IMG/VR virus record: IMGVR_UViG_3300010413_000020
Coordinates: 32,001-96,000 of that record
DNA: 64,000 nucleotides
Reading direction: 5' to 3' (one strand)
DNA from: a virus
Shown: piece by piece, positions 30,571 through 53,870 of the stretch
Layout: each line of letters begins with the position of its first letter
Position numbering within the stretch: the stretch's first letter is position 1
Program-made: the position numbers and the translations under genes
The notes under the pieces: generated by a model
What the model was told of the DNA's origin: nothing
What the model saw: the letters and a program-made list of their open reading frames with translations, nothing else
Database searches by the model: none

Positions 30571-31587
30571 ATGCAGGATTATTTTACCGATAAAATTTAC
30601 CAACTCTATTATGATGAAGTTGGAAAACATCCAATCCTATCACCTACCGAAGAACGGGACTTATTACTTCGCTATCACAATTGTTCAGGTTGCAAACGGC
30701 GATTACCTTCCCGTATTGCAGTTAAGAACTGCCCCGCTTGCGGTACTGTTGTACCTTCCCATATTTCTGGCAAAGATTACACCTGCGAAAATTGTGACCA
30801 CAAGTTTGATACCCATATGGCTCCGCGAATATGCCCATATTGTGGATCTCCTAGAGATTTGGAGGCTCGACAAAAGCTTGTCGAATCTAATCTCCGTTTT
30901 GTCATTCGACGTGCCAAGAGTATCACAACTAAACCAGAACACTTAAGAAAGTTAGTATCTGCGGGCAATGTAGGATTAATGCTTGCAATAGATAAATTCA
31001 GTCTTGAACGTCAGACGCGATTTTTGACTTATGCTGAATGGTGGATACGTAAAGAAATGTTTGATGAAATACATTCATCTAGTTTCATTCACGTACCCAC
31101 ACATCGTCAAAAATCATTACGCCGAGAACAGAAAGAAGGAAAATACATTTGTAAACATTGTGGCCTACGTACTGATGATCCTGACTCACGAGAACATTGG
31201 ACAGGTTGTACTGACATAGACCATGAATTTATTCTTCCATTAAATAATGATTCAGCGGTTTTAAATGATGCAGTTTCATTAGACGATGTTACCTTAGTTG
31301 ATACTTCCAATGTAGAAAATCTTGCAATTGATTCTGACGCACAAGAACATTTACATGCGGCAATACAGGACATGACATTAAGTGAGCGTGATCGATTTAT
31401 TATCATGGGATACTTTAATGTACCACTTCCTGATAGAAAATCGGAACCTAAAAGCTTACATCAATTAGCTGCATTGACTGGAATTACTCCAGAACGCGTC
31501 CGTCAAATCAAAGAAGAAACACTGAAAGTATTGCGAAAAGAATTAAAAAGGCGGGCAATAGAGGGGGTGGATGAAGTTTGTATTTAA
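30571..31587 (+). CDS. Sigma70-family RNA polymerase sigma factor with zinc-ribbon insertions
   Basis: Region 1.2 (ILSPTEE), region 2 (LVESNLRFV, GNVGLMLAIDKF, RFLTYAEWWIR), region 4 (ITPERVRQIKE). Confidence 0.9.
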   Translation: MQDYFTDKIYQLYYDEVGKHPILSPTEERDLLLRYHNCSGCKRRLPSRIAVKNCPACGTVVPSHISGKDYTCENCDHKFDTHMAPRICPYCGSPRDLEARQKLVESNLRFVIRRAKSITTKPEHLRKLVSAGNVGLMLAIDKFSLERQTRFLTYAEWWIRKEMFDEIHSSSFIHVPTHRQKSLRREQKEGKYICKHCGLRTDDPDSREHWTGCTDIDHEFILPLNNDSAVLNDAVSLDDVTLVDTSNVENLAIDSDAQEHLHAAIQDMTLSERDRFIIMGYFNVPLPDRKSEPKSLHQLAALTGITPERVRQIKEETLKVLRKELKRRAIEGVDEVCI

Positions 31588-35800: not shown

Positions 35801-37825
35801 TTAAACCGTTCGAACACTGGCTATTTTGCGAGAAGCCTTAGTGCTTAAAACACACGTGTCCGACCAGGGGTTTGTGCCGTCTTCCACACAGCGGCAGTAT
35901 TCTCTACAAAGAGTGCAGTTAATTTTTTCTGTAAGAAGTTGTGAGACATCCTTTTTATTCTTTAACGCAATTAGCTGCTGAATTTCAAGTGTTTTTGCTG
36001 CACAAATATCATAAACAACCGTTTTCTGATTCTGCCCAATTCTAAAAGCACGACCTAGAGACTGGTCACGATCATCCGCTTTCCAAGAACGACTGTAATA
36101 AATTGTGTATTTAGCCGCTGTTAGGGTTATGGCAATACCCGTACTAATTTGGCCTAAATAAAGGCGGCACTGACCGTCTTTCTGAAACCGCTCTTCCATC
36201 TGTTTTATCTTGTGGGTTGTGCTGCCGTCTACTCGTACGTATCCCCAATTGTTCTTTTTGAACAGTGTCTCTATATCGTCAAGCTCTGCAGTATAGTTGG
36301 CCCACACAATGGATTTAGCAGAAGGCACTATTCCTTCCAGTAAACTTTCGAGTGCTTGTAATTTTGGATTGGGCGAGTAACGAAGTTCTTCTTTAGCCGT
36401 TTTGTCGATTAGGTGTCGAAGGTCACATTGGGAGTTTCCTGGTTGTATTCTTCGGCTTACGCAATACTCTACTTTATCGCACGTATTACAAATCCCGGTG
36501 TCTTGGGGAACATAAATAAAGCCACTACAAAGTTGAAGTAATTTGTTTACCCGAATAGCGCCATTTTGAATCTCTAAAGCGGGGGCATCTGGGCGTTCAA
36601 TTGCCCACTCCTTTACAACGTAATTATAATCTCGGCGCTGTGCGGGGGAGAGTTCAAATTCAATCGATTCAAACCGGCGTTCGGGTAAGTCAACACATTC
36701 TTCTAACTTCTTTTGACTGGATATCTCAGCTACACGTTTATTAAGCACGTGCAGATTTTTAAAACCTACAACAATGTGGTCATTGTGCGGCGACATAACC
36801 AAAAAAGTGGACTTGAATGTCGTGAAGTTCTCTGGCGTCACATAGGGTGCCAGGAACTTCAATTGCGGGTAGAGATCTCGTGGGTCTCCCTGCGATAAAG
36901 TGCCTGTGAGAAGATACCTTCTGGTAGCTTTTCTTGAAAGTTGTAAACAAACTTTTGTACGGGCACTTTGGATACGCTTAACTTTGTGAGATTCGTCTCC
37001 CACTATTGTGATATATGGAAAATCTGAAAGCCACTGGGGCTCTCCTCTTATTTTAGACTGCAAATATTTTGCAATTTCTTGTGGAGTAGCACGGTTTGCC
37101 ACCCATTCTTGAACACAATGGATTTGTTCTTTTTCATCATTTATTGACTTAAGAATTTTTATGAACTTAGGATTAGGAACACGATTATATTGTCTGAGAA
37201 ACTCTATCACTTTGGGAAATAATTTAGGAATACCATATATCCTAGCAGTGTCATAAGAAGAAATTAAAACGTCGTAATCTTTAGACTCAGCCAATTGTTT
37301 TAATTTTGAAGCTCGAGATCCGGTTAATCGTGTGGCTGAGAGCAAACCTCCAGAGTGCAACTTGATTTCTTTTACCCAATTATGTGTCGCAATTCGCGGA
37401 CACAGAATTAATACCTTCCCTTCAAACTCTGGGATAGCGTCGATTATGACTTTACTTTTACCGGTACCCATTTCCCAGTTGAGAATCCATCGATAATTTT
37501 GAACCACTTCGGCGTATCCTTCTAGCTGGTGACTAAATGAGGGAGTAACGAAGTTACGCTGTTGTGCCTGTGCTAAAAGTTCACTATGACTTTTAAGGCT
37601 ATTTACCCAGTTTTGGGCATTTTCGGTTAACGTAATGCTTTTATGGACTTTTGTAAGGTCATGTAGTACGTTTTCTATAAAAGGAGGAAACGCTGGAAAG
37701 AGATAGCGTTCGTTTTTGATGTCTTCGGTTGCACCATATACACGTGACCACCGTGAATCAAAACACGTAGGGTCATTCATTTGGAACACTGGGGTATGAT
37801 TTATGAAGTCAAGTCCGATTTTCAT
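35801..37825 (-). CDS. SNF2-family (SF2) helicase
   Basis: EMGTGKS, GDESH, LTGT, VRVDGS, GIAITLT and QSLGRAFRIGQ. Confidence 0.9.
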   Translation of the reverse strand: MKIGLDFINHTPVFQMNDPTCFDSRWSRVYGATEDIKNERYLFPAFPPFIENVLHDLTKVHKSITLTENAQNWVNSLKSHSELLAQAQQRNFVTPSFSHQLEGYAEVVQNYRWILNWEMGTGKSKVIIDAIPEFEGKVLILCPRIATHNWVKEIKLHSGGLLSATRLTGSRASKLKQLAESKDYDVLISSYDTARIYGIPKLFPKVIEFLRQYNRVPNPKFIKILKSINDEKEQIHCVQEWVANRATPQEIAKYLQSKIRGEPQWLSDFPYITIVGDESHKVKRIQSARTKVCLQLSRKATRRYLLTGTLSQGDPRDLYPQLKFLAPYVTPENFTTFKSTFLVMSPHNDHIVVGFKNLHVLNKRVAEISSQKKLEECVDLPERRFESIEFELSPAQRRDYNYVVKEWAIERPDAPALEIQNGAIRVNKLLQLCSGFIYVPQDTGICNTCDKVEYCVSRRIQPGNSQCDLRHLIDKTAKEELRYSPNPKLQALESLLEGIVPSAKSIVWANYTAELDDIETLFKKNNWGYVRVDGSTTHKIKQMEERFQKDGQCRLYLGQISTGIAITLTAAKYTIYYSRSWKADDRDQSLGRAFRIGQNQKTVVYDICAAKTLEIQQLIALKNKKDVSQLLTEKINCTLCREYCRCVEDGTNPWSDTCVLSTKASRKIASVRTV

Positions 37826-37877: not shown

Positions 37878-39635
37878 ATGACCTTTGAGCCTAGTTGTGG
37901 CGTAATGAGTCCTTTCGGGGGAGGCAAAAATGCCCAGTCTCACCCTAACCCATATTACAATTTTTCGCAGGTCTTTACTCCTCGTAGGTTAAAAGACTTG
38001 TTTAAGTGGTGTGAATTTATTTTTTATAATAGTCCACATATTTTTGCAGCTCTTCGTAAATTTGGAGAATACCCGATCACGGATATTACTTATGAAACTA
38101 CGAATGAAGCATTGAAGGATAAGCACGAATATCTTTTAGAAAAAGTTGTTCGAGCAAGAGAGTTGTTGATCAAGGCCACCCTGGACAAATACGTTTATGG
38201 GAATGCCTTTATATCTATGTACCAACCCTTCATTCGCTTTTTGAAGTGTCCTAAATGCAGCACACTTGTTAATATTAGAAATGTTTCCTACAAATTCAGT
38301 TTGCATAAATTGAAATTCAGTTATACGTGCCCCCACTGTAAAGCGGCCAACTCTATCGGTAAAGACCATATTATTGATAAAAAATTGATGTTAAGTCGTA
38401 AAGTCAATTTCATACGGTGGGACCCCAAGCTTATAGACATTGACCACAATCCAATGACGGGGGATTCAGAATACTACTACACAATTCCGCAAGAGATAGT
38501 ACAACGAGTAACTGGAGGACATAAAACTCTGATTGACACCCTTCCGATGGGTTTCTTAGAAGCTATAAAATCTAATAAGAAATTTAAGTTTAATCGAGAT
38601 GCTATTCTCCATATGAAAGTAGGAGGTCCTGCGGGTATTAGCCCTCAATGGGGTTTGCCGCCTCTTCTTTCTGTGATTAACTCATTTCATTATACTGCAA
38701 TACTTCGTAAAGCTAATGAAGCGATAGCTCTCGATCATCTTGTCCCATTCCGAATAATTCATCCAGCACAGGCGTCTGGAACGGGCGATCCTTTAATGCA
38801 AATGAATTTAGTCAAGTGGCGCGACAGTTTGAAAATTAATATGAAACAGTGGCGCATGGACCCGCTACATATGATGATATCGCCTGTGCCTCTGGGGCTA
38901 ACTCAAGTAGGAGGACAGGGACGTGCACTTTTAACACTGGGTGAAATACAGGAAGCAGAAAAGAATATTGTGGCAGCCTTGGGTATTCCGATTGAGTTTC
39001 TCTATGGAGGACTTACCGGCAAAGGTATGGAAGCTACGCTCCGTTTAATTGAAAATCAGTTAGAAACCCACATTAATGATTTGCTCGACTTACTTCAATG
39101 GGTAGATGATCGCTGCGCTGCTTTTTTGGGATGGGACAAGATAGAAGTTGGAATGACGAAATTTCGAATGATTGATGACGACACTAATAAACAGATAATT
39201 TTCAATCTTTGGATGCAAGGCAAGACCGGACAATCTCTACCGGTAATTTCAGATGATACGATAATGACTATGTATGATATTGACCGTGAAAAAGAAGAGC
39301 GGAAGCTTAAACAACAACAACTTGATAGTATCCGTATGCAGATGGAGATGGAACAAGATACTGCTAAATTGCAAAATAGTCTTAAAAAACAAATTGAGAT
39401 GGAAATGCAACAACAAGGTATGGGTGGTCCTGGCCCGATGGGATATAATCAACAACAAATCTTGGCAGAGGCAGACCGCATCGTTCAAGAACAGTTGATG
39501 TCTGTAGATGAGGGAACTCGTAAGAGTATGTTGCATCAATTACAAATGGAAGACGCCGTGATGTACGCGGTAGTTGTCCAGCGCCTTGAGCAGGTGCAAA
39601 CCGTTAATAAGCAACAGGCAACAGCCGGAATGTAA
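37878..39635 (+). CDS. Portal protein (with CxxC...CxxC insertion)
   Basis: LDKYVYGNAF, WGLPPLL and IVAALGIPIEFLYG portal-like motifs; size and context. Confidence 0.7.
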   Translation: MTFEPSCGVMSPFGGGKNAQSHPNPYYNFSQVFTPRRLKDLFKWCEFIFYNSPHIFAALRKFGEYPITDITYETTNEALKDKHEYLLEKVVRARELLIKATLDKYVYGNAFISMYQPFIRFLKCPKCSTLVNIRNVSYKFSLHKLKFSYTCPHCKAANSIGKDHIIDKKLMLSRKVNFIRWDPKLIDIDHNPMTGDSEYYYTIPQEIVQRVTGGHKTLIDTLPMGFLEAIKSNKKFKFNRDAILHMKVGGPAGISPQWGLPPLLSVINSFHYTAILRKANEAIALDHLVPFRIIHPAQASGTGDPLMQMNLVKWRDSLKINMKQWRMDPLHMMISPVPLGLTQVGGQGRALLTLGEIQEAEKNIVAALGIPIEFLYGGLTGKGMEATLRLIENQLETHINDLLDLLQWVDDRCAAFLGWDKIEVGMTKFRMIDDDTNKQIIFNLWMQGKTGQSLPVISDDTIMTMYDIDREKEERKLKQQQLDSIRMQMEMEQDTAKLQNSLKKQIEMEMQQQGMGGPGPMGYNQQQILAEADRIVQEQLMSVDEGTRKSMLHQLQMEDAVMYAVVVQRLEQVQTVNKQQATAGM

Positions 39636-39640
39636 AACCC

Positions 39641-40261
39641 ATGGCCGACAGTAATAGAGGAAACCTATCCGGATTCGATTTTCTCCAAATGATGGAAGAT
39701 TCTCGGAGACTACCGGAAACCCCTACAGGCGGACCTAGTAAAGCAGTGGAATTACCTGCTGCATCGGAACAACCCAGTGATGGTGTTAACCCATTTTTGG
39801 AACATGAAGTACCAACCGACAAAGTTTCGGTGCCTACCCATTTCCTTTCATTTTCTAGAGTGTTTGTGCTCTGGAAAAATTGGGAAGACTGTGCAAAATG
39901 TATCGAAGAAGTTACTACTGAACGTAATACTTTTGAGGCACGAAAAGCAGAGGCTGAGCGCAAAGGTGAAAAGTTCGAGGAAGAGTTGGACAACCGAGAG
40001 CGTGAATGCCCACACAATCATCGGAAAGAATATAAAGAAACAATTGACCGTTGTCTACGCGGTGACGGTGTTATTGTTCTTAGAGAAGCGTTTAATCTCA
40101 AGAACGGAACACGTTGTATGCACCTAGAATGGCTCGAAGCCGATCCTGAATTTGTTAAACAACAAAAAAAGATAGAAGAAGAACGTAGAGCCAACCAAGT
40201 TTATCCTCCAGACGTAGAAGCTGCTTTTAATAAAGGGAAAAAGAAGGCAACCCCTGAATAG
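39641..40261 (+). CDS. Hypothetical protein
   Basis: 206 aa; CAKC...CPH. Confidence 0.7.
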   Translation: MADSNRGNLSGFDFLQMMEDSRRLPETPTGGPSKAVELPAASEQPSDGVNPFLEHEVPTDKVSVPTHFLSFSRVFVLWKNWEDCAKCIEEVTTERNTFEARKAEAERKGEKFEEELDNRERECPHNHRKEYKETIDRCLRGDGVIVLREAFNLKNGTRCMHLEWLEADPEFVKQQKKIEEERRANQVYPPDVEAAFNKGKKKATPE

Positions 40262-40435: not shown

Positions 40436-43400
40436 ATGGCGGAAGAATTAACGCCGGTATTGGTTAGCGCAGAAACTCGACGGGATGATATACGAAACAA
40501 GGTATTATCCGGACTTCAAGAAGCTTTTCCGATTAAATCGCGAAGTAAAACTTTAGAATTAGCCGATCTCAAAATGGATAGTAAAGAATTTTCTCCGACA
40601 GAGCAAAAAATGGCTATTCTCCGAGGTGATACTCTTTCCGAGAGTGTAAGGGGTACTGTGCGGATGCGGGACAAGGACGGAAAATTAGTCGATGAAGTTA
40701 AAAATTTTACAGTTGCCCGAGTACCTTGGTTTACTCCTAGACATACTCTCATAGTAGGAGGTAACGAATATTCTGTATCGAATCAGATACGCCCTAAACC
40801 GGGGGTGTATGCTCGCAAACGAGCCAACGGAATTTTAGAGGCTAGTTTTAATACTCGAGGAGGTAGCAACTTTAATGTGAGTATGGACCCGGCCCAAGGA
40901 GTGCCGCGGTTGGAATATGGTTCTACTAAAATTCCTCTCTACCCAATACTTCGACAAGCCGGTATACCCCATTCCCGAATAGCTGAAAAATGGGGACCAC
41001 GATTAGCAGATAAGAATGCAGAACAATTAACTAAGCTCACAGACAAATCCGTTCAGACGCTCTATAAAAAAGTAGTTCCGGAGTATCAACAAAGTGGAGG
41101 AGCTTCAACTTCTCAGAAAACAAAAGAGATTTTTGAAAAATACTTACGATCTCATATGGACCCAGAAGTAAATCAACGAACTCTTGGTAAACCTTATGCC
41201 AGTGTAACTCCAGACAGTCTACTTGATGCCTCACATAAAGTGCTAAAGATTTTCAAGAATCCTACAGATGTAGATGATAGAGATAATTTAGATTTTAAAG
41301 CGCTACATTCAATCGATGATTTTTTTAAAGAAGTGATAACTCTAAATGCTCGGGATGTAGCACGTAAGACTGCTATTAAAATGGAGGTTTCACCGTCGTT
41401 ACGAAAGGCACTTCCTTCGGGTCCTTTTACTCCGGGTCTCATTCGTTTTATAAATAGTTCACAACTTGTTGCTGTTCCAACTCAGACTAATCCTATTGAA
41501 TTAGTAGATTCAGCTATGCGCGTAACTGCTCTGGGGGAAGGAGGTATTTCATCTGATCGTGCAATTCCGATGGAAGCTAGACAGGTTCATCCTACACAAA
41601 TAGGGGCACTAGATCCCTTTCGTACTCCCGAGTCTTTTAGAGCAGGTATTGATGTTAGGGCTGCGATGGCCGTTAGACGCGATAAGCAGGGCAATATTTT
41701 TGTTCCAGTTTATGATGCTAAAGCTAAACGTAAACGTTACGTGCGTGCTGGAGAAATGCAAACAGAAGTTGTGGCTTTTCCTAATCAGCCATTACGTGGG
41801 CAAGTGGATGCATTAGTTGGTGGTGAGTTGCGAAAAGTTCCTGCCAAGCAAGTGCGTTATCAGATACCACACCCTTCATTAATGTATGGCCCAACTACTA
41901 ACTTAGTTCCTTTTATGGAATCGCAACAGGGTAATCGTACAGTTATGGGTTCCAAAATGCAGGTACAGGCCCTACCTTTAATTTATCGGGAAGCACCGTT
42001 AATACAAGTACAGAGTCCTCGCAAAGAATCTTTTGAACAGTTAATGGCTAGTATTGTTAATCCGACTACTCCTGTTGCTGGTACTGTAGCAAAAGTAGAT
42101 GATGATTTTGTTTACATTCGACCTGATGAAGAAAAAACAAGTGCTCGAGGTGGTACTTTAATTAAAGTTCCTTACGAACAAAATTTTCCTCTGGCGGCTA
42201 AGACACACTTACATCACGAAGTTACTGTTAAAGAGGGTGACCGAGTTCGTTCAGGACAACAGGTAGCCCAATCTAATTTCACGAAAGATGGAACCTTAGC
42301 CTTGGGTAAAAATCTTAGTGTCGCTTATATGCCTTATTACGGGGCTAATTCTAATGACGCCGTAGTTATTAGTGATGCTGCATCTAAGAAACTGACTTCG
42401 GAACGAATGTATAAGATGGTTGTTCCGCGGGATAATGATTTGATATTTAACCGAACCAAACACAAGGTTTATTATGGGCAAAACTACGACAAGAAATTTT
42501 ATGACACGTTAGACTCCGATGGAGTGATTCGTCCAGGAACTAAGCTAGAACCCGGTGATCCGCTTTTTTTAGGATTACGTAAATCTCAACTTACTTCCGA
42601 TGATTTGCTTCTCGGACGTTTACATAAATCCCTAGCACGACCTTTTAGAGAAAATTCACACACATGGGATCATGACTATCCAGGGGAAGTAGTTGATGTT
42701 GTTAAGACACCCAAACGTATTGCCTTTACTGTTCGAACGCAGGAACCGATGGGTGTAGGGGATAAGCTAGCAGGACGTTATGGAAATAAAGGTGTTGTTT
42801 CCATGGTGATTCCCGATGACCAAATGGTTCAGGACGAAGCCGGAAAACCTATAGATGTTATTATGACATCTGCCGGGGTAGTTTCTCGTGCAAATCCTGC
42901 ACAAATTATCGAAACAGCAGTTGGCAAGGTTGCTGAAAAAACCGGAAAACCTATTTTAGTTGAAAGTCTTTCTGGTCGAAATAATGTACAGTGGGCTAAA
43001 GACCTTCTGAAAAAACATAATTTAAAAGACAAAGAAACTGTTTTTGATCCAGTTGCAGGAAAGAAAATTCCTAATGTTTTTGTAGGACGACAATACATTC
43101 TGAAATTGATGAAATCCACAGATACTAATTACAGTGCTAGAGGACTTGGTAATTACGATGTAAATCAACAACCAACTAAAGGAGGAGTACACAGTGCTAA
43201 GGCTCTGGGTAAGATGGAGTTCGATGCTCTTATAGGGCACAATGCTCGGAATATTCTTAGAGAAGCGGCGACTTTAAAAAGCCAAAAAAATGATGAGTGG
43301 TGGAGAGCGCTTCAGTTAGGTTATCCTACTCCTCCTCCTAAAGCTTCTTTTGCCTATGATAAATTTTTGAACATGTTAACTGGAGCAGGAGTTAGGGTTC

Positions 43401-44791
43401 ATCGAGAGAGTAACCGCCTTTCGTTAGCCCCGCTTACTGATAAAGACGTTGTTTCTATGTCTGCGGGAGAAATCGAAGAACCTAAATTAATTAGAGCTAA
43501 AGATCTAAAGCCTGAAAGAGGGGGACTTTTCGATGTTGCCAAAACGGGAGGAATGACAGGAAAAAAATGGAGCCATGTAGACCTTGCGGAACCTATCGTT
43601 AATCCGGTATTTCGTGAACCCGTTCGGCGCTTTTTGGGAATGACCAATCCGCAGCTAGACGAAACTTTAAAAACTAAAGGGGGAGTGTTTGTTAAACGTG
43701 AATTGTCCAAAATTGATTTGGATGCAAAAGAAAAAGCAATTCTTAAAGGTCTTCAAAAGAAAACAGGAGATAATCTCCAGGGAGATGTTAAACAAATAAA
43801 GTATATACGAGCGCTTAAAGCCCAAGGGCTTACGCCCGATAAAGCCTATATCGTTTCTAAAGTTCCAGTGTTACCTCCTGTTTTTCGTCCTATTCTCCCC
43901 GGTAAAGGAGGTCAGGAAATCATCTACGGAGATATTAATCCACTTTACCGGGATCTAATTTACGTGAATAACCAATTCAAAGAAGTAAAGAAAACAAAAT
44001 TATTACCTGGCGAAGAAGAAAATTTGCGCCCAACACTCAACCAAGCTGTGGGAGCTGTTTATGGGGTTAATGATCCGGTAACGGCTAAATCAAAAGCTCG
44101 AAGTCACAAAGGCTTTCTAACGTATATTTCTGGAACAAACTCTCCTAAAACAGGGTATTTTCACCAAAAGCTTATGCGGCGTACCCAAGACATGGCGGGC
44201 CGAGGAACTATCGTTCCGGATAGCACTTTAGGAATGGACGAAGTGGGTGTGCCTGAAGATATGCTCTGGACTATGTATGAAAAAACTCTCATCAGTAATT
44301 TAGTCCGGAATGGCTATTCGGCTCTGCAAGCCAACAAAATGGTGAAGGACCGGCATCCTGCTGCACAAATCCAGTTACAGAAAGAAGTTCAATCTCGTCC
44401 AGTAATTATCAATCGAGCTCCTACACTTCATAGATATAGTATGGTGGCCGCATATCCTAAGCCGGTGCCCGGTAAAACAATCCGGGTTAACCCTTTTGTA
44501 GAAGAGGGTATGAACGCAGACTACGATGGAGACACCATGATGTTGCATGTGCCAGTAGGGTCAAGTGCGATTGAAGAAGCTCGAGGTATGACTCTTTCTA
44601 ACCTTTTGTACAGTGATAAATCTAAACAAGATCTCTTGGTCTTTCCTCAACACGAGGCCATAATGGGAATTGCTCACGCTTCTTCTTTGGATGAGAAGAA
44701 TAAACCAGTAAAATTTAAGAACTCGGGAGATGCAATGAAAGCATATCGTGAGGGTAAAATTAGTTTAGGAACACGAGTCCAAATTGGATAA
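40436..44791 (+). CDS. rpoB: Phage multisubunit RNA polymerase: beta subunit fused to the N-terminal (catalytic) half of beta'
   Basis: Beta motifs RTPES..G, NRTVMGSKMQVQA and GDKLAGRYGNKGVVS; beta' motifs PERGGLFD, PVLPPVFRP, NRAPTLHR and NADYDGD. Confidence 0.93.
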   Translation: MAEELTPVLVSAETRRDDIRNKVLSGLQEAFPIKSRSKTLELADLKMDSKEFSPTEQKMAILRGDTLSESVRGTVRMRDKDGKLVDEVKNFTVARVPWFTPRHTLIVGGNEYSVSNQIRPKPGVYARKRANGILEASFNTRGGSNFNVSMDPAQGVPRLEYGSTKIPLYPILRQAGIPHSRIAEKWGPRLADKNAEQLTKLTDKSVQTLYKKVVPEYQQSGGASTSQKTKEIFEKYLRSHMDPEVNQRTLGKPYASVTPDSLLDASHKVLKIFKNPTDVDDRDNLDFKALHSIDDFFKEVITLNARDVARKTAIKMEVSPSLRKALPSGPFTPGLIRFINSSQLVAVPTQTNPIELVDSAMRVTALGEGGISSDRAIPMEARQVHPTQIGALDPFRTPESFRAGIDVRAAMAVRRDKQGNIFVPVYDAKAKRKRYVRAGEMQTEVVAFPNQPLRGQVDALVGGELRKVPAKQVRYQIPHPSLMYGPTTNLVPFMESQQGNRTVMGSKMQVQALPLIYREAPLIQVQSPRKESFEQLMASIVNPTTPVAGTVAKVDDDFVYIRPDEEKTSARGGTLIKVPYEQNFPLAAKTHLHHEVTVKEGDRVRSGQQVAQSNFTKDGTLALGKNLSVAYMPYYGANSNDAVVISDAASKKLTSERMYKMVVPRDNDLIFNRTKHKVYYGQNYDKKFYDTLDSDGVIRPGTKLEPGDPLFLGLRKSQLTSDDLLLGRLHKSLARPFRENSHTWDHDYPGEVVDVVKTPKRIAFTVRTQEPMGVGDKLAGRYGNKGVVSMVIPDDQMVQDEAGKPIDVIMTSAGVVSRANPAQIIETAVGKVAEKTGKPILVESLSGRNNVQWAKDLLKKHNLKDKETVFDPVAGKKIPNVFVGRQYILKLMKSTDTNYSARGLGNYDVNQQPTKGGVHSAKALGKMEFDALIGHNARNILREAATLKSQKNDEWWRALQLGYPTPPPKASFAYDKFLNMLTGAGVRVHRESNRLSLAPLTDKDVVSMSAGEIEEPKLIRAKDLKPERGGLFDVAKTGGMTGKKWSHVDLAEPIVNPVFREPVRRFLGMTNPQLDETLKTKGGVFVKRELSKIDLDAKEKAILKGLQKKTGDNLQGDVKQIKYIRALKAQGLTPDKAYIVSKVPVLPPVFRPILPGKGGQEIIYGDINPLYRDLIYVNNQFKEVKKTKLLPGEEENLRPTLNQAVGAVYGVNDPVTAKSKARSHKGFLTYISGTNSPKTGYFHQKLMRRTQDMAGRGTIVPDSTLGMDEVGVPEDMLWTMYEKTLISNLVRNGYSALQANKMVKDRHPAAQIQLQKEVQSRPVIINRAPTLHRYSMVAAYPKPVPGKTIRVNPFVEEGMNADYDGDTMMLHVPVGSSAIEEARGMTLSNLLYSDKSKQDLLVFPQHEAIMGIAHASSLDEKNKPVKFKNSGDAMKAYREGKISLGTRVQIG

Positions 44792-44797
44792 TCGATT

Positions 44798-45145
44798 ATG
44801 AAAAAGACTGCACAAGAAATAGCAAGCGATGTTGTAAACAATCTAGAGAACACGTCACCGTTAGATGCTGCAACCAAAGAACATAAACGCCAATATTTTG
44901 CTAAAATGGACCCGCACACTTATGCCGGACTGAGTTTAGGTGGCGCTTTGGGGATACTTCCACTCCTTTCTCAAAATGTCCGAAATACAGGAATATTGGC
45001 AGGAATATATCCTTTGGTTGGGGGTGGGTTAGGTGCATTGAGCGGTCGAGTTGTAGGGCGGCATTTGGTTGGTCCATATCAAAAACCTACACTAGAAGAA
45101 CTACAGCAAATTATGTTGGCAAAAGAAAGAGAAAAAAATGATTAA
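44798..45145 (+). CDS. Small glycine-zipper hydrophobic protein
   Basis: MKKTAQ start; GxxxG-rich segments. Confidence 0.65.
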   Translation: MKKTAQEIASDVVNNLENTSPLDAATKEHKRQYFAKMDPHTYAGLSLGGALGILPLLSQNVRNTGILAGIYPLVGGGLGALSGRVVGRHLVGPYQKPTLEELQQIMLAKEREKND

Positions 45146-45497
45146 AACAGCAGCCCAGCCAGCATATCAACGATGGCAACAAAAATGTGCGATGGACGTT
45201 GACGAAGAAAGAGAACATATTCGAAATTTATTAACCGGAGGTCTTGCTGGCGCAGTAGACCCCTTAGTTGCCGGTATTGCCGCTTCAGCTTCTAAACCTA
45301 CGGGTGATCCAACTCAACAATTTTGGGGAACACTTGGAGGGTCACTTGGAGGTAAGATAGTAGGTGGCGGAATTGGACGTTTAGCTGGAAAACCAGGAAC
45401 GATTCTTGGACTTCTTTTGGGAGGAGGTGGAGGCGGTTATGCCGCACAGCGGTTAATGGCACATCACCGAAAAGAAATGGAACCTGAAGAAGATTAA
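45138..45497 (+). CDS. Small glycine-zipper hydrophobic protein
   Basis: MIKTAA start; GxxxG repeats. Confidence 0.65.
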   Translation: MIKTAAQPAYQRWQQKCAMDVDEEREHIRNLLTGGLAGAVDPLVAGIAASASKPTGDPTQQFWGTLGGSLGGKIVGGGIGRLAGKPGTILGLLLGGGGGGYAAQRLMAHHRKEMEPEED

Positions 45498-45512
45498 GGT
45501 TTGTCTTAACGT

Positions 45513-47051
45513 ATGCCATATTCATCTCCAGCACAACGCGCTGCTATTTGGGCCAATCGCAAACGTCAAGAGGTTCAACCATCTCGACATGACATAGCTG
45601 AATATTATACCGACCCTCAAGTACGACAAGAAATACTTTCGCAACTTCGAAATCGTCCCGTAATGGCAATACAGTCTCTTCCGTCTGGTCAAAAAATAGT
45701 TCGAAGAAATCTTTCAACAGGTGACCCCATACAAATAACTAAAGCGGATTTCAGCGGGGGCGAATCCGATTTAGGCTGGTATACTGATAGGCGTTTTGCG
45801 GAATTCCACCCAGTTATAGGTACTCGAACGGATAAAGTTTGGGTAGATATTGATCCTGGGCCTAATCGAAGTACTGAAAGTTTAAAACCATTAGTACGAA
45901 AAGTTGTAGACTCCGTTAATCAAATGTCTAATGTACAGGATGTACAGCTTGCTTATTCTGGAGGACGCGGATTTCACGTCCGAGGTATACTCAAAAAACC
46001 AGAAGATACTGATTCTATGCGAGTACGTTTGACTGAGCAGCTCAAAAGAGATTTTCCCGAGGAGGATGTTGTCTTTCAAAAGCCAAAGGGAAAACAAGTG
46101 CGTTTAGATACGTCTACGCTGAAACGTATGGGATCTATCCGGGCACTTCGGTCCATTAACGTAGATACTGGACGCGTGGCGCTACCTCTTTCATTACAAG
46201 AGTTGGATTCATTTAATCCTTCTGATGCTGCTTTAAAGACAATTTTAAAATCTCGGGAGATAGCTCCAGGAATTCCTCAATCTCAACGAATTCACGCACT
46301 TCCCGATAAACCCAAGAAGCCGCAATGGACGCTAGCAATCCAAGAACACGATGCTAAACGTGCAGGTAAACACTGGGATTTGCGTTTAGTGGACCCACAT
46401 ACTGGATTTGCACATTCTTGGGCAGTACCAAAAGCACAGTTTCCTACCGCTAAACCATTGTTGGCTATTCAAACTCCCACACATACTTCTGACTATGCGT
46501 TGAATTTTGGAGGGAAAGGGCCACAGGAAATTGGTGAAGGTTATGGCAAAGGAACTGTAGAGATTAAATATAAAGAACCAGTAAAGGTGGTTTCTTCTAG
46601 TCCTGACAAGATAAAATTCCAGCGTATAATTAATGGGGATGCGCAAGAGTATATGCTCTTCAGAACAAAAGATAATTCATGGCTTATTAGGAATATAAAG
46701 GGACAGGAAAAGAAAGGTGCGGCTATACCCATGAACCATATTTTTAAATTTGGATATTTTGATACATTAGTCAAATTGGGGATAGCTAAGGGTAAAATGC
46801 CGGAACCTTCTATTAGTGAAATGCAACAACCTCTTGATAATACTGACATGAATACTCCTGTAGGAATGTTAGCGGACCTTATGCAGCAATTGCCGGATGA
46901 TAATTTCGATTCACGTTCACGAAAACCACAACACCAGAGTGCCGAAGATAGGCTTAATAGGGACGTTTCATGGAGCAGTCCAACGGATATACCATATAGC
47001 CAAATGGATGGTCCCACTCCCTGGGTTACATTACCCGGAGGCACACCCTGA
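45513..47051 (+). CDS. LigD-like AEP primase-polymerase domain fused to LigD 3'-phosphoesterase domain (no ligase domain)
   Basis: EFHP, WVDIDPG and YSGGRGFHV; IQEHDAKRAGKHWDLRL..SWAVPK..LAIQTPTH...YGKG. Confidence 0.82.
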   Translation: MPYSSPAQRAAIWANRKRQEVQPSRHDIAEYYTDPQVRQEILSQLRNRPVMAIQSLPSGQKIVRRNLSTGDPIQITKADFSGGESDLGWYTDRRFAEFHPVIGTRTDKVWVDIDPGPNRSTESLKPLVRKVVDSVNQMSNVQDVQLAYSGGRGFHVRGILKKPEDTDSMRVRLTEQLKRDFPEEDVVFQKPKGKQVRLDTSTLKRMGSIRALRSINVDTGRVALPLSLQELDSFNPSDAALKTILKSREIAPGIPQSQRIHALPDKPKKPQWTLAIQEHDAKRAGKHWDLRLVDPHTGFAHSWAVPKAQFPTAKPLLAIQTPTHTSDYALNFGGKGPQEIGEGYGKGTVEIKYKEPVKVVSSSPDKIKFQRIINGDAQEYMLFRTKDNSWLIRNIKGQEKKGAAIPMNHIFKFGYFDTLVKLGIAKGKMPEPSISEMQQPLDNTDMNTPVGMLADLMQQLPDDNFDSRSRKPQHQSAEDRLNRDVSWSSPTDIPYSQMDGPTPWVTLPGGTP

Positions 47052-48853
47052 TGGCGGGAACACAAACATTTGGCAAATATTTGATAAATCAAAATTTGCC
47101 TTCCAATTATTCTGTTCAAGAAGAAATGGGTAAACAAAATTTTAAAGAACAGATGAATAGACTGGCTAGAGAAAATCCTAATCAGTATGTAGAAACAATT
47201 TCGAAATTAAAAAGATTGGGAGATGAGTTAGCAACTACTGAAGGTCTCTCAATTGGCTTAGATGATATTGCACCGAATTATAAAGAGCGAGATAAGATTT
47301 TAGCGCCTCTCCAGAAAAAATTTAATTTAGCGGGTTCGGATGACCGTAAACGTGCAATTGTAGAGGAAGCTCAAGAAAAATTAGTAAATCATGCAATGCA
47401 GCACAAGGGTTCCTTAACACTTCAGGTTAAAAGTGGAGCTCGAGGTAAGCCAGTGCAATATGGAATGATTGTTAGTGGTTTAGGTTATGCTCGAGATCCT
47501 ATGAATGGAAAATCGGTTCCGTGGTTGATTGGTAAGTCATTTGCAGAAGGTTTGAAACCGTCAGACTACTGGGCGCAAACCGGGCAATCTGTCATGGATG
47601 TCGTTCGAACATACACTGCAATTTCAGAACCCGGAGAGTTGTCTAAGAAACTTATAAGCTCTATGACGGACCTTGTTGTCACAGAAGATGATTGTGGAAC
47701 ATCGAATGGTATTTTAATGGATGCTACTTCACCAGATGCAGTGGACAGATACTTGGCTAAAGATGTAGGTCCATTTAAAAGAAATCTTCTTATTACTCCA
47801 ACAATACAACCTAAATTAGCGAGAACAGCCAAACAGATATTGGTACGTTCACCAATGACTTGTGAAGCAGCTGATGGTGTTTGTCAAAAATGCCAAGGAC
47901 TGGACGAAAAAGGTTCTCCCCATCCTTTAGGTGTCAATGTAGGGGTGCGTGCGGCTCAGGCCATGGCCGAACCGCTGACACAATTTGCCCTCAATGCAAA
48001 ACACGGCGGAAGAACATTAAAATCCGATAAGTTTCAAGTTCATGGAATTTCAGGTTTTCGACAAATCATTGAGACTCCGCGGCAGTTTGTTAATAAAGCT
48101 ACACTTGCGAATCGCACAGGTAAAGTAACAAAGATAGAGGAAGCTCCGCAAGGGGGTTACAATGTAAATATCGAAAATGATGTGCATTATATTCCTCCTA
48201 ATTTGGGGCTTAAAGTCAAACGAGGACAGACCGTTGAAACAGGAGATGTTTTAAGCGAAGGAATTCCTAAGCCTGATGAAGTTGTTCGTTACCGAGGACT
48301 TGGAGCAGGACGTTTATATATGGTAGACGTTCTCAAGAATCTATATAAAGGGCAAGGCAAAGATTTAGACCAACGACATTTTGAACTCTTGGCGAAAAGT
48401 GGGATGAATCATGTACGTATTATGAATGACCCTTCTCATAGATTTATTAAGGGCGATATTGTGAATTACAATACTCTTCGTGCAGAGTTAAGTAGAGAAG
48501 CTAGAGAGAAAGATTTAAAAGAAGCTCTCGGAGATACCCTTGGAAAAGAATATTATCAATTTGCCGTAGGTACTCGAATTACTCCTCGAATAGCAAATGA
48601 GTTGAATAAACAAAATGTTAAAAAAGTTATGGTTGCTCCTAGGGCTCCTGAAGTAACTTTTGTTATGAAGCCTGCTACAACAATTCCTAAATTGAATCCT
48701 GATTGGATGGCAAGATTGTCACACCAAGGATTGAAGTCTTCAATTCTTCAAGCGGCACACACAGGTGAAATTGCCAATATTCATGGAGTTCATCCTGTTC
48801 CTGCGTATGTATATGGAGTAGAATTTGGACAAGGTACTAAGGGACGTTACTAA
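47051..48853 (+). CDS. rpoC: RNA polymerase beta' C-terminal half
   Basis: SGARG, EGL, TAISEPGELSKKL..DLVVTEDDCGT, RSPMTC..GVCQKC and AAQAMAEPLTQ (trigger loop). Confidence 0.92.
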   Translation: MAGTQTFGKYLINQNLPSNYSVQEEMGKQNFKEQMNRLARENPNQYVETISKLKRLGDELATTEGLSIGLDDIAPNYKERDKILAPLQKKFNLAGSDDRKRAIVEEAQEKLVNHAMQHKGSLTLQVKSGARGKPVQYGMIVSGLGYARDPMNGKSVPWLIGKSFAEGLKPSDYWAQTGQSVMDVVRTYTAISEPGELSKKLISSMTDLVVTEDDCGTSNGILMDATSPDAVDRYLAKDVGPFKRNLLITPTIQPKLARTAKQILVRSPMTCEAADGVCQKCQGLDEKGSPHPLGVNVGVRAAQAMAEPLTQFALNAKHGGRTLKSDKFQVHGISGFRQIIETPRQFVNKATLANRTGKVTKIEEAPQGGYNVNIENDVHYIPPNLGLKVKRGQTVETGDVLSEGIPKPDEVVRYRGLGAGRLYMVDVLKNLYKGQGKDLDQRHFELLAKSGMNHVRIMNDPSHRFIKGDIVNYNTLRAELSREAREKDLKEALGDTLGKEYYQFAVGTRITPRIANELNKQNVKKVMVAPRAPEVTFVMKPATTIPKLNPDWMARLSHQGLKSSILQAAHTGEIANIHGVHPVPAYVYGVEFGQGTKGRY

Positions 48854-48855
48854 TT

Positions 48856-49425
48856 ATGCCCAACTTGTTTGAACAAGGTCATTTTGAAATGTTGCAAGCC
48901 TTAGGTTTAACTAAGACTGCTGCTCCTATTATTTACAAAGCTCCCTTTCTTCGAAGGGCAGGATGGTGGCTTGGTAAAAAATTGCCTCAATGGGGAAAAG
49001 CTCTTAAGGAAACAGCTATAGGAGAACCGAGAAAATTTTTAAGAGAGTTGGAACAGGGAAAAGCGTTTTCTAAAGGCAGCCTTATAAGAGAAAGTTATAA
49101 AGCTCCCGGTATTCTCAATAAAGTTTTTTGGTATGGTTTCCCCGCTTATGAAGGTTTGGAAATTTTGAGAGATCAAGACCCGAATAAGGCAGAACGCTTG
49201 GGAGGATTAATTGGTGGAACAGCATTAGGAATGGGGGCGTTTAAGCCTCTAGGAATGTTGGGATACATGGGTGCAGATTGGTTAGGTCATCGGTTAGGTT
49301 CGGGACTGGCCCGTACGGCTAAACATTTGGCAGGACCCGAAGTAAACCCACAAGGTCGTTGGGAATACCCGATACCTGAGGCACCACAATATTTCCAACC
49401 TCCAATGTATCCACCCTATGCATAA
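48856..49425 (+). CDS. Hypothetical membrane-like/virion protein
   Basis: FEQGHFEMLQALGLTKTAA N-terminus; glycine zipper. Confidence 0.65.
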   Translation: MPNLFEQGHFEMLQALGLTKTAAPIIYKAPFLRRAGWWLGKKLPQWGKALKETAIGEPRKFLRELEQGKAFSKGSLIRESYKAPGILNKVFWYGFPAYEGLEILRDQDPNKAERLGGLIGGTALGMGAFKPLGMLGYMGADWLGHRLGSGLARTAKHLAGPEVNPQGRWEYPIPEAPQYFQPPMYPPYA

Positions 49426-51182: not shown

Positions 51183-53870
51183 ATGCCCGATGGATTTGCT
51201 ATGTCGCCTCAAGTTCAGTCATTCGGAAATCCGCAAGGTGGACCCGAACAAGAAGAGCAAATGTTCAAGGAACGCTTTAATCAGATGGCGTACCAAGTTC
51301 TTTTTTCTAAGTTTTCGGAACTTGCTCCGGATGTAATAACTTTTAAAATCCTCGAAGTTGATGTTGAGGAAGGAAGTGGTATAGGGGTTTTTGTTATCAA
51401 TTATCAACAACGGCCTATATACATTCCGGTAATTATGGTGGATAGCCGTTTGAAGCCAATGGAGATGTTCTATTTCAAAGAATTGAATATCTTTTTGCCT
51501 TTGTCGATTCAATGGCTCGAGGAAATTTCTAAGATGACATTGGACGAACAAGGAGAGGGGGCGAAGTTACCTAAAGATGTTCCTCAAGATGTCAATATCC
51601 GAGATCTTGTTCTTCCCCCAATGACTACAACGGGGCGCATAGGTTATGCAAGTTTTGACCCGGATATTGATGCGAAACTTCTTTTTAAAGAAGCAGAAGA
51701 TCATAGTCTGGAAATTCATCCCCAGTTTTTGAATGTTCTTCGTACTGCGCCCAAGGTTGTTTTGGATGGAGTTAAATTAGCTTTTCACCGAAATCCAAAT
51801 CTCCTTCAAAAATTCGCATCAAACTACGGCACTCAACCACTAATTCAGGCAATGTCCGAAGGGTACGAGAATGCCAAAACTTTTGAAAAGACGGCGGCGT
51901 TAAATCCTGGCTGTGTACGCGTGTTGACTAAAGCAGCTAGTTCAGAGGAATTTTTAAAAGTATTTGGAAAAACTGCAGGTATTGCGTTCACCGAAGCTCT
52001 TAGGAATGGGTTTGTTGCTAAAGATACGCGTCCAGGAATCACAAAGGTTGCAGTAAAAATGGAAGCACCCGCATTCCTAGAAGCACCGGGTCCTGAACCG
52101 GGTTGGCATAAAGTTTGGTTTGTAGATGGCAAGCCGGGTATTTACTTTGTAATTCCGTTTCCTAAAGATCCCGATGGTTATGAAGTTAATCGCCCTGTTT
52201 GCGGGTCTGGATACGGTGGAAATCGACACCTAGACATGAGTTATTTACTAATCAGTAAAGATGGTAAAGAAGCGTGGACCACTGACCAAGTAGTTGGACA
52301 ACGTATCTACGATTTTGAAAATGACGATGCAGGCGTGGGTATTAAAGGATCGAAAATTTTCAATCTTCTTAATACCAATGCTAAAGGGGATAATCCTACT
52401 GCGCGGAGTTATGGATATTTCATCAATGTTTCAGGCCGTGGGATTGAAGCAACTAAACCTTTCCGTATTGAAACCATTACCCAAGATGGGGAAATAACAA
52501 GGATAGTGGGAGAATACGGTGATCCTAAGGTCGTCATTGATGGCGATCCTTCTCGGAAACGGATTAACGTATCAATGGGTGGCGGCATGATGTTCATGCC
52601 CAATACTGCTAAGTACGTTGAGATTATGAAAGTTCCCGCGCCTTCAGCAGACGGCAATGACCATCAAGCATGGCAAAAAGTTAGAGATTATCAACGAGAA
52701 CGTAAGAGTTCGGTTGTGAAAGACCCCAAATTATTATTCCGTTGGATGAATCACATTTTACAAAAAGCCAAAGGGCTCCCTGTAAATGTTAAAAGTGCAG
52801 GTCTGAACCAGTGGTGGATAGCCGGAAATGACCGCGCTTTATACGTTGGAGAAGCTCTTGAAAAGGTAGCGAATCTTTACAATATTTCTACTGAAGATGC
52901 TGCTGGAGTTCTTATTGACGCGCAGCGACACGGAATTTCTTCGGCACATATTTTGGATACGCAATCGGGAAGTTTGTTAAAGCAAGCTTTTGAAAAAATT
53001 GCTCAACCCATGCCGGAAGAAGGTCCGATGCAATATCAATCTCAACCCGGACAGCAAGAAGGCCTACCTCCTATGGGACAAGCCCCAATGCAACCAATGC
53101 AACAAGGTGAAATGCCTATGGGACAGGGAGCTCCTCCGTTTGATCCAATGCAGGGAGCTCCACCTCCTCAGTCTCCGATGAGTGCTACAGACTTAGCTAT
53201 TGGAGAAGCTATACAGGGGCTGCAGCAACAGAATCAAACTATGCAGCAAGAAAACCAAGCACAGATGGCGCAGCTCCAACAGAAAATGGATATGGAGATG
53301 CAGCAGAACGAGCAACTTGTTGGAGTACTGCAAGGGATTCAGCAGAGATCTAATGAGCTTGAAGCAGCTACTAACGGTCAAATCCCGATGGGAGCAGAAC
53401 AGTCACCGGGTATCGCGGCACAGATGATTGCACCTACTCCGCCTCCTCCTCCTGAGCCGCCACCAACTCCTATGATGGACCAGGAGGGGTTGTCTCCGGA
53501 ATTAATAGCAGACCAAATAAATCCTGCAATGGTTGATCAGGCAGCAAGTTTTCAAGACCAGGGAATGTTTGATACTGCGGCTATAGCAATGCTCGCCGCT
53601 GCGCCTGTGCTTCAGGATATCGTTGCTTCTTACGTTCCTAATATGGAAAAAGCTGTCGATAATTTAGGACGTGTTTTATTAACTCTTTGGATGAAAGAAA
53701 ATGAAACTAGAGAGGCATTAGGAGATGAAGAATTCATAAGTTTAGAAGATAAACTTCGAACAGTCTTTAAGAATATGGGTGATGTGGTTTTATCTCTGAG
53801 TCATAATGCAATGGCAGTTCAAAGCGATGCAGATAAAGCTCAGATGATGATGCAGAACAGTCGTGGATGA
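51183..53870 (+). CDS. Large putative virion/internal head protein with Q/P/M-rich region
   Basis: GGAGG SD; 895 aa; KxA motifs. Confidence 0.7.
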   Translation: MPDGFAMSPQVQSFGNPQGGPEQEEQMFKERFNQMAYQVLFSKFSELAPDVITFKILEVDVEEGSGIGVFVINYQQRPIYIPVIMVDSRLKPMEMFYFKELNIFLPLSIQWLEEISKMTLDEQGEGAKLPKDVPQDVNIRDLVLPPMTTTGRIGYASFDPDIDAKLLFKEAEDHSLEIHPQFLNVLRTAPKVVLDGVKLAFHRNPNLLQKFASNYGTQPLIQAMSEGYENAKTFEKTAALNPGCVRVLTKAASSEEFLKVFGKTAGIAFTEALRNGFVAKDTRPGITKVAVKMEAPAFLEAPGPEPGWHKVWFVDGKPGIYFVIPFPKDPDGYEVNRPVCGSGYGGNRHLDMSYLLISKDGKEAWTTDQVVGQRIYDFENDDAGVGIKGSKIFNLLNTNAKGDNPTARSYGYFINVSGRGIEATKPFRIETITQDGEITRIVGEYGDPKVVIDGDPSRKRINVSMGGGMMFMPNTAKYVEIMKVPAPSADGNDHQAWQKVRDYQRERKSSVVKDPKLLFRWMNHILQKAKGLPVNVKSAGLNQWWIAGNDRALYVGEALEKVANLYNISTEDAAGVLIDAQRHGISSAHILDTQSGSLLKQAFEKIAQPMPEEGPMQYQSQPGQQEGLPPMGQAPMQPMQQGEMPMGQGAPPFDPMQGAPPPQSPMSATDLAIGEAIQGLQQQNQTMQQENQAQMAQLQQKMDMEMQQNEQLVGVLQGIQQRSNELEAATNGQIPMGAEQSPGIAAQMIAPTPPPPPEPPPTPMMDQEGLSPELIADQINPAMVDQAASFQDQGMFDTAAIAMLAAAPVLQDIVASYVPNMEKAVDNLGRVLLTLWMKENETREALGDEEFISLEDKLRTVFKNMGDVVLSLSHNAMAVQSDADKAQMMMQNSRG

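Follow-up and report, generated by a model that had tools for sequence, protein, structure and literature searches.

The locus described here raises the question of whether a tailed phage encodes a complete bacterial-type RNA polymerase core whose large subunits, beta and beta', are fused at one point and divided at another. It lies in a window of 64,000 nucleotides, bases 32001-96000 of the 107,281-bp IMG/VR record IMGVR_UViG_3300010413_000020 (positions below are those of the window), and its source is an uncultured tailed phage with a genome of ~180 kb; CheckV puts the completeness of the record at ~60%. Two open reading frames (ORFs) on the + strand, at 40436-44791 (1451 amino acids, chain 1) and 47051-48853 (600 amino acids, chain 2), are open throughout and very likely make up one bacterial-type RNA polymerase in two polypeptides. 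This degree of confidence applies jointly to the whole explanation developed below, that is, to the two-chain architecture, the sigma factor, a single fission and the packaging steps. As a phage polymerase of two chains, associated with a sigma factor and lacking alpha and omega, it is genuine and conserved; it derives from a single-chain fusion. An earlier note on this DNA had described beta and the N-terminal half of beta' (beta'N) as fused and the C-terminal half (beta'C) as separate, and the Pfam domains, PDB matches and Escherichia coli alignments all agree with that description. The elements on which the argument draws are the following, with E. coli numbering where indicated.

30571..31587, + strand: sigma-70-family factor with regions 2 and 4 (Sigma70_r2, r4) and inserted zinc ribbons (Pfam)
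40436..44791, + strand: fusion gene, 1451 amino acids, whole beta (residues 1 to ~993) plus beta' ~20-550 (E. coli)
41447..41545, + strand: counterpart of the rifampicin-pocket segment (E. coli beta 505-537; alignments)
42596..42637, + strand: counterpart of the flap-tip helix (E. coli beta ~895-908; alignment)
42758..42793, + strand: beta catalytic barrel motif GDKLAGRYGNKG, residues 775-786 (alignment, motif search)
43382..43441, + strand: beta/beta' fusion junction, kept in every family member examined (alignment)
43514..43585, + strand: site of the deleted beta' zinc ribbon, 13 residues instead of a four-Cys domain (alignments)
43934..44065, + strand: beta' clamp helices, coiled coil (E. 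coli beta' 265-309; alignment)
44513..44533, + strand: NADYDGD catalytic loop, residues 1360-1366, all three Asp retained (alignment, motif search)
47051..48853, + strand: beta'C gene, 600 amino acids, with rim helices, bridge helix, second zinc site, trigger loop, C-terminal clamp and jaw (Pfam, alignment, model)
47558..47665, + strand: bridge helix, residues 170-205, a 36-residue helix in the model (alignment, AlphaFold)
47939..48073, + strand: trigger loop and its helices, residues 297-341, without sequence insertion 3 (SI3) (alignment, AlphaFold)

Both proteins were mapped by alignment on E. coli K-12 RpoB and RpoC. In chain 1, the Pfam domains Rpb2_3 and Rpb2_6 (E 7e-49) lie at residues 349-916 and Rpb1_1 and Rpb1_2 (E 7e-25) at residues 993-1385, and PDB sequence matches extend over residues 28-989 for bacterial beta (E 1e-67) and over residues 1082-1450 for the N-terminal half of beta' (E 3e-42). 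The beta portion stops at about residue 993, opposite the final residues of E. coli beta, and the chain resumes without a linker at about E. coli beta' residue 20, with the loss of some 19 N-terminal beta' residues. The beta'N portion that follows, ~460 residues long, includes the clamp with its helices as well as the catalytic barrel, and chain 1 terminates at E. coli beta' ~550 with a TAA stop at 44789-44791. The two motifs that define the two-barrel core, the two-lysine GDK...GNKG of beta and the NADFDGD of beta', are represented by GDKLAGRYGNKG and NADYDGD. No cysteine occurs among the 1451 residues of chain 1, and the clamp zinc cysteines between GGLFD and HVDL, whose absence had been noticed earlier, are indeed missing: 13 residues stand in place of the zinc ribbon (E. 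coli beta' 70-88), a 32-column deletion common to the whole phage family. The rifampicin pocket differs as well. Positions Q513, D516, H526 and S531, which take part in rifampicin binding, are Ala, Thr, Ser and Thr both here and family-wide, and because these pocket residues are changed the enzyme is predicted to be insensitive to rifampicin.

Chain 2 carries the rest of beta'. Its Pfam domain is Rpb1_5, its PDB sequence match to the C-terminal half of beta' has an E-value of 1e-37, and its alignment spans E. coli beta' 573-938 and 1190-1286, with residue 6 opposite E. coli 573; by structural alignment, the first residue of the model corresponds to E. coli beta' ~568. The bridge helix, trigger loop and zinc site that the earlier note had placed in this downstream gene were found there by both the E. 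coli beta' alignment and an AlphaFold model, which was built from a 62-sequence alignment with a mean predicted local distance difference test (pLDDT) of 91 and a predicted template modelling score (pTM) of 0.81 (a first model from a 15-row alignment, with a pLDDT of 58, was discarded). The model aligns with bacterial beta' C-terminal halves at Z 32-35, and its best structural match is Staphylococcus aureus beta' 556-1183 (VIA), with Z 35 and a root mean square deviation of 5.3 over 531 residues. The trigger loop retains the His equivalent to E. coli H936, and the chain has exactly four cysteines (215, 271, 278 and 281), which form the second zinc site. Together, the two chains hold all catalytic elements of the bacterial core enzyme in ~2050 residues, which bears out the description of the enzyme as compact; its closeness to the bacterial enzyme, also claimed earlier, is seen in PDB sequence searches with both ORFs, which matched bacterial and plastid polymerase chains only. 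The interval between the genes, given as 2.3 kb, measures 2259 nt. Trans-splicing as a means of rejoining the chains was rejected, as Pfam found no intein domain in either protein and chain 1 is cysteine-free.

Profile searches for alpha (PF01000) and omega (PF01192) gave no match in the 107-kb record or in the genomes of five complete relatives (172-192 kb, 95-100% complete, two with terminal repeats), and the same profiles matched all 14 control genomes, so the absence of both genes reported from the window holds for these genomes too. Each of the five relatives has one beta' catalytic locus, and hence a single polymerase set per genome. A sigma-70 region 2 match is also present in all five, and in four it exceeds the Pfam cut-off. 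In bacteria, sigma regions 4 and 2 dock on the flap tip of beta and the clamp helices of beta', respectively. Both sites have counterparts in chain 1 by alignment, the clamp helices with several surface residues unlike those of E. coli, so that the features of a sigma-dependent holoenzyme (a sigma-70-family gene, flap tip and clamp helices) are present together. The factor at 30571-31587 is most likely the promoter-specificity subunit. Inserts resembling zinc ribbons occur at several points in it, ahead of region 2 and between that region and region 4, whereas the polymerase has lost the zinc ribbon of beta'; the one may possibly have substituted for the other.

The layout is no isolated case: it is the common state of a very large phage enzyme family that includes a published isolate. 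A junction-containing query against 5.8 billion proteins gave, among the matches listed, more than 120 clusters of 53-90% identity, all with beta and beta'N domains, on contigs of up to ~196 kb. At 45 IMG/VR loci retrieved with beta'C, the fusion gene is located upstream in every case in which the flanking sequence extends that far; in a second set of 80 IMG/VR loci, 44 include the upstream gene, the junction falls within one alignment piece in all 44, and beta'C is a separate gene at all 33 scorable loci. The two-chain layout is present in ~70 IMG/VR loci. An exhaustive profile-free search returned 1154 representatives at E <= 1e-30, and metagenomes contain abundant members of the family, on contigs 160-216 kb long. 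Its cultured members are Salmonella phage Arash and Vibrio phages D69, D181 and D148; a megablast of the region against cultured phages found no near-identical phage. An assembly chimera, which the earlier note had named as a way for its proposal to fail, or a broken, decaying gene has nothing in its favor and a negligible probability, given that the same junction and the same break recur in more than 100 independent contigs and in four cultured phages, that the catalytic motifs are all intact and that identities range from 27% to 90%.

The state of the break varies across this family. In five relatives of 27-35% identity (L042, L043, L045, L047 and L048), the frame is unbroken across the site and encodes a single chain of ~2010-2090 amino acids, with 4-21 residues in place of the stop, the 2259-nt gap and the new start of the window. 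One of these five relatives is a complete genome of 192,446 bp with a 2066-amino-acid frame, and at least 12 representatives at the 50% identity level are of single-chain length (2004-2090 amino acids). In the two-chain relative L122 the genes abut in a TAATG overlap, the gaps in other two-chain relatives range from 650 nt to ~7 kb and differ in content, and in L051-L060 chain 1 is itself interrupted near residue 1080, so that the enzyme consists of three chains. Phylogenies of the concatenated enzyme, obtained by quick search and rooted on E. coli, Acinetobacter and Staphylococcus, placed all split forms on one side of one branch, with Shimodaira-Hasegawa-like approximate likelihood ratio test (SH-aLRT) support of 99 (49 rows, LG+G4) and 100 (24 rows, LG+C20+F+G4 with posterior mean site frequencies, PMSF). 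Both trees group the window sequence with the split clade; the three-chain forms lie within the Arash/D69 subclade, and the single-chain forms are basal, their order at the base not being settled. Since bacterial beta' is unbroken at the site, as it is in the single-chain forms, the most parsimonious explanation of the split is one fission of a single-chain beta-beta' ancestor. The ancestral gene would have been cut once, in a surface loop just past the catalytic barrel, and later insertions would have entered the gap, in the window two orphan ORFs and a LigD-like enzyme.

How the break compares with known beta' splits bears directly on its origin. Published work places the cyanobacterial beta' junction in a surface loop ahead of conserved region E, beta'1 comprising the clamp and barrel and beta'2 the rim helix, bridge helix and trigger loop, and according to a review the phiKZ-like beta' is cut at the same place. 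No cyanobacterial beta' chain was among the matches listed in our PDB sequence searches, and the junction was therefore compared structurally, using beta'2 of Synechococcus 7942 and Synechocystis 6803 (9dvs, 8syi, 8gzg and 8gzh). Residues 17-19 of the chain-2 model correspond to residues 1-7 of cyanobacterial beta'2 (Z 32-35), which places the phage break one short helix, 11-18 residues, upstream of the rpoC1/rpoC2 junction. By this alignment, the two breaks share a domain boundary and differ in position. As in the phage, the cut in the cyanobacterial and plastid enzymes separates the catalytic barrel from the rim helices and region E and falls at the protein surface; unlike the phage enzyme, the cyanobacterial enzyme has beta as a separate chain, a huge SI3, and alpha and omega, whereas in the phage beta is fused and SI3, alpha and omega are lacking. 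A split of cyanobacterial type, with the break exactly at rpoC1/rpoC2 and beta separate, is thus found in neither respect. The 11-18-residue offset, together with relatives that are unbroken at the site, argues for a phage split independent of the cyanobacterial one.

Two other histories of the split were weighed against a single fission. The two genes could be ancestral and the single-chain forms a later fusion, a history to which the long branches of the single-chain rows lend something, as these rows are not placed firmly at the base and attraction to the bacterial outgroup could have misplaced them. We consider it improbable, because the bacterial beta' of the outgroup is contiguous at the site, as in the single-chain forms, and the branch that parts the split forms from the others is supported at 99-100 under two models. 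Alternatively, the split could have been inherited from a cyanobacterial donor together with rpoC1 and rpoC2, an idea raised in a review for the phiKZ-like enzymes. The top PDB matches of the beta part are indeed cyanobacterial beta chains, and the break is near the cyanobacterial junction; however, the margin of those matches is narrow (1e-67 versus 1e-65 for Clostridioides and 1e-64 for Thermus), the cuts are 11-18 residues apart, chain 2 has no SI3 insertion, and beta' is unbroken at the site in relatives, the split forms being one derived group. Inheritance from such a donor is accordingly very improbable, more so than a later fusion, and one fission of a single-chain ancestor remains the preferred account.

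To our knowledge, the phage multisubunit polymerases studied so far are either of the divergent, sigma-less, multi-piece phiKZ type or giant single chains of the crAss type. The phiKZ/AR9-type enzymes resemble the present one in being phage-encoded, in lacking alpha and omega, in having beta' cut past the catalytic barrel and in that one of their versions is packed in the virion. They differ in that their beta is in two or three pieces with nothing fused, whereas beta of the window phage is unbroken; in having gp68/gp226-type factors and no sigma homolog, where the window phage has a sigma-70-type factor; in having two enzyme sets per genome, as opposed to one per complete genome in the window family; and in being far more divergent from bacteria. 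The characters of a phiKZ-like enzyme (a split beta, no sigma homolog, two sets) are therefore not those of the window enzyme. The earlier statement that phiKZ-like polymerases are split differently stands for beta, unbroken and fused here, and is too strong for beta', whose break lies at the domain boundary given in a review for the phiKZ-like enzymes.

Fusion of beta to beta' has bacterial parallels. In Helicobacter and Wolbachia, in work attributed to Zakharova et al. 1998 and Severinov et al. 1997, the C-terminus of beta is reportedly joined to the N-terminus of beta' in one frame, and these fusions are said to keep a full-length beta', alpha, omega and the zinc ribbon. Beta and the entire beta' in one chain were found in the five single-chain relatives named above, whose ~2050-residue enzymes match such a whole-length fusion, and not in the window. 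The window enzyme is unlike the Helicobacter/Wolbachia tether in that ~19 beta' residues and the zinc ribbon are gone, alpha and omega are lacking, and beta' is cut again.

The closest characterized system is Arash (OQ632216; genome ~181 kb), where gp206 (1525 amino acids) and gp216 (606 amino acids) have the same two-chain layout, junction and break, with a portal gene just upstream and sigma factors encoded, as in the window phage. Full-length alignments gave identities of 36% for chain 1 (gp206) and 28% for chain 2 (gp216). Between the two genes, Arash has ~4.8 kb of mostly opposite-strand genes, in contrast to the LigD-like gene of the window. The window thus has the Arash arrangement of a beta-beta'N chain and a beta'C chain beside a portal gene, with portal and helicase genes syntenic. 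In the Arash paper these proteins are named beta and beta', without mention of fusion or split (PMC10585845), so that the two-chain layout is present, unremarked, in a published genome.

The mReC group of uncultured tailed phages likewise has beta and beta' of bacterial character, whose sequences can be aligned with cellular polymerases without difficulty, according to the parts of Weinheimer and Aylward 2020 (PMC7481178) consulted here, and some of its contigs, of ~180 kb, come from the same metagenome series as the window. The consulted parts of its table give beta (~1000-1380 amino acids) and beta' (~900-1010 amino acids) as separate proteins and contain no 1450/600 pair such as the 1451/600 of the window, so that the gene layouts differ as far as those parts show. 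Several jumbo contigs in those parts (150-308 kb) have two beta/beta' pairs (~1365 + 1005 and ~1010 + 900 amino acids), which resemble the two polymerase sets of phiKZ-like phages. The mReC pairs of 1364 + 1005 amino acids were considered as possible instances of the window layout; the ~1000-amino-acid representatives in our search proved to be beta'C with a trigger-loop intein. A single-protein search found no loci, and a profile search found further two-chain loci only. PF07068 had no match in the 107-kb record, but the same search matched no control genome either. The window layout is described neither in two reviews on the polymerases of jumbo phages nor in a review from 2026, and a search for rpoB-rpoC or bacterial-type beta-beta' fusions, which left most subscription journals outside its reach, found no phage paper. 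We found no published description of the layout of this large phage enzyme family, although its absence from the literature is thereby unproven.

The remaining question is when the enzyme acts. The polymerase lies among virion genes, as had been observed earlier: it is part of the head module, directly after a portal homolog. The surrounding genes are as follows.

22208-28607 and 33328-34515, - strand: genes preceding the head module, for a family A DNA polymerase with 3'-5' exonuclease, a 1151-amino-acid protein bearing a DnaG-type zinc finger, and an amidase that has a peptidoglycan-binding domain
35801-37825, - strand: SNF2-type helicase (Pfam/PHROGs, synteny)
37878-39635, + strand: portal homolog, 29-33% identity to Arash gp204 and its D69 counterpart (E 3e-93 and 2e-102)
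39641-40261: conserved ORF, 206 amino acids, between portal and chain 1
44798..45497, + strand: two small overlapping orphan ORFs, 115 and 119 amino acids
45513..47051, + strand: LigD-like primase-polymerase with 3'-phosphoesterase, no ligase domain (Pfam)
48856-49425: conserved ORF, 189 amino acids, after chain 2
51183-53870: homolog of an Arash "structural protein"
56741-58822: prohead-protease-like gene

Synteny with Arash and D69 extends over the helicase, the portal, the two polymerase genes and the structural protein. Tandem mass spectrometry of Arash particles detected gp206 more than any other protein, with 3516 spectra versus 1333 for the major capsid protein, as well as gp216 (1210 spectra) and the sigma factor gp10 (PMC10585845). 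Because of the head-module position and this virion proteomics, the enzyme is probably packed in the capsid with its sigma factor and injected to start early transcription. The suggestion of the earlier note that the enzyme may be packaged is in this way supported by a 36%-identical relative and by gene position, and for the window phage itself it continues to be an extrapolation.

Several points weigh against this account and favor, to some extent, a polymerase that is made only after infection for middle and late genes, with the host RNA polymerase transcribing the early ones. The case for packaging comes from a relative and not from this phage, and the Arash virion list of 116 proteins includes ribonucleotide reductases, kinases and many other clearly non-structural enzymes (PMC10585845), so that the preparation probably held cytoplasmic proteins and carry-over of abundant non-structural proteins is possible. 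The phage sigma factor might equally serve the host polymerase; sigma dependence itself is deduced solely from co-occurrence and the retained docking elements. Nevertheless, the Arash gp206 spectra outnumber those of the major capsid protein and sigma gp10 was found too, the genes lie between the portal and the prohead-protease-like gene in synteny with Arash and D69, and there is one polymerase set per genome; a purely non-virion enzyme is therefore unlikely. Other points concern the remaining parts of the explanation. The trigger-loop residue R933 of E. coli is Asn in chain 2, the record is incomplete and a further accessory subunit may exist, the trees are quick searches with three bacterial outgroups and long single-chain branches, and the architecture and function of this particular enzyme are read from its sequence and a model.

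The enzyme that emerges from packaging, a retained sigma factor and a single fission would work as follows. Chain 1 would supply a compact full beta and the clamp and barrel half of beta', and chain 2 the remainder of beta'; the covalent beta-beta' link might stand in for the alpha dimer as an assembly aid, and promoters would be recognized by the phage sigma-70-type factor, bound to the flap tip and clamp helices that the enzyme retains. As it is the only polymerase set, the enzyme probably transcribes later genes as well. More tentatively, and with somewhat less than balanced confidence, the family could represent a natural one-, two- and three-chain series of a minimal sigma-dependent enzyme (~2050 residues, without alpha, omega or zinc ribbon) in which the beta-beta' link replaces the alpha dimer and the holoenzyme is packed and injected, that is, a new class of virion polymerase apart from the N4, crAss and phiKZ types that would make the phage independent of the host polymerase. 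The family is near enough to the bacterial enzyme for residue-by-residue alignment, with sigma kept and alpha, omega and the zinc ribbon dispensed with, and it offers a direct test case for what the alpha dimer and omega are needed for. Its one-, two- and three-chain forms are a natural experiment on subunit fission and fusion, and its compactness makes the enzyme a candidate for an orthogonal transcription system programmed by sigma. With at least four members in culture, experiments are feasible.

Among the neighbors of the polymerase genes, 8 of 10 had no match in PHROGs. The two small ORFs at 44798-45497 have no homolog in ~130 related loci and no Pfam or PHROG match, and look like a recent lineage-specific insertion. 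The LigD-like gene is found between the polymerase genes in all ~30 loci of the clade of 54-76% identity and not in remoter relatives, and its TGA overlaps the beta'C ATG (TGATG), an arrangement of translational coupling. The ORFs at 39641-40261 and 48856-49425 bracket the polymerase block, a position kept in the close clade, and are candidate accessory subunits. The SNF2 helicase at 35801-37825 adjoins the portal and polymerase genes and is syntenic with Arash gp198c and D69; a similar SNF2 helicase has been linked in a review to phiKZ-type polymerase genes, with a proposed RapA-like role. A scan for promoters and terminators found fewer sites than in shuffled sequence and supports nothing.

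Insertions and fusions in relatives complete the picture of these two genes. In Vibrio phages D181 and D148 (OZ196140 and OZ196545), the fusion gene is interrupted and appears as two alignment pieces, with a homing endonuclease annotated under the match; in Vibrio phage D69 it is intact. Chain 1 of relatives L005, L011, L015-L019, L023 and L028-L030 contains inteins with LAGLIDADG domains. Intein sites in relatives are located exactly at catalytic sites, inside the beta GDK...GNKG motif (~779), just past NADYDGD (~1366) and in the beta'C trigger loop; the two genes of the window are intein-free. Some beta'C representatives are joined to further modules or extended (P0372, P0247-P0254, P0324 and P0361-P0365); in many, C-terminal extensions bring the total to 940-1490 amino acids. 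One beta'C representative carries an N-terminal Acb1-like 2H phosphoesterase, of an anti-CBASS family.

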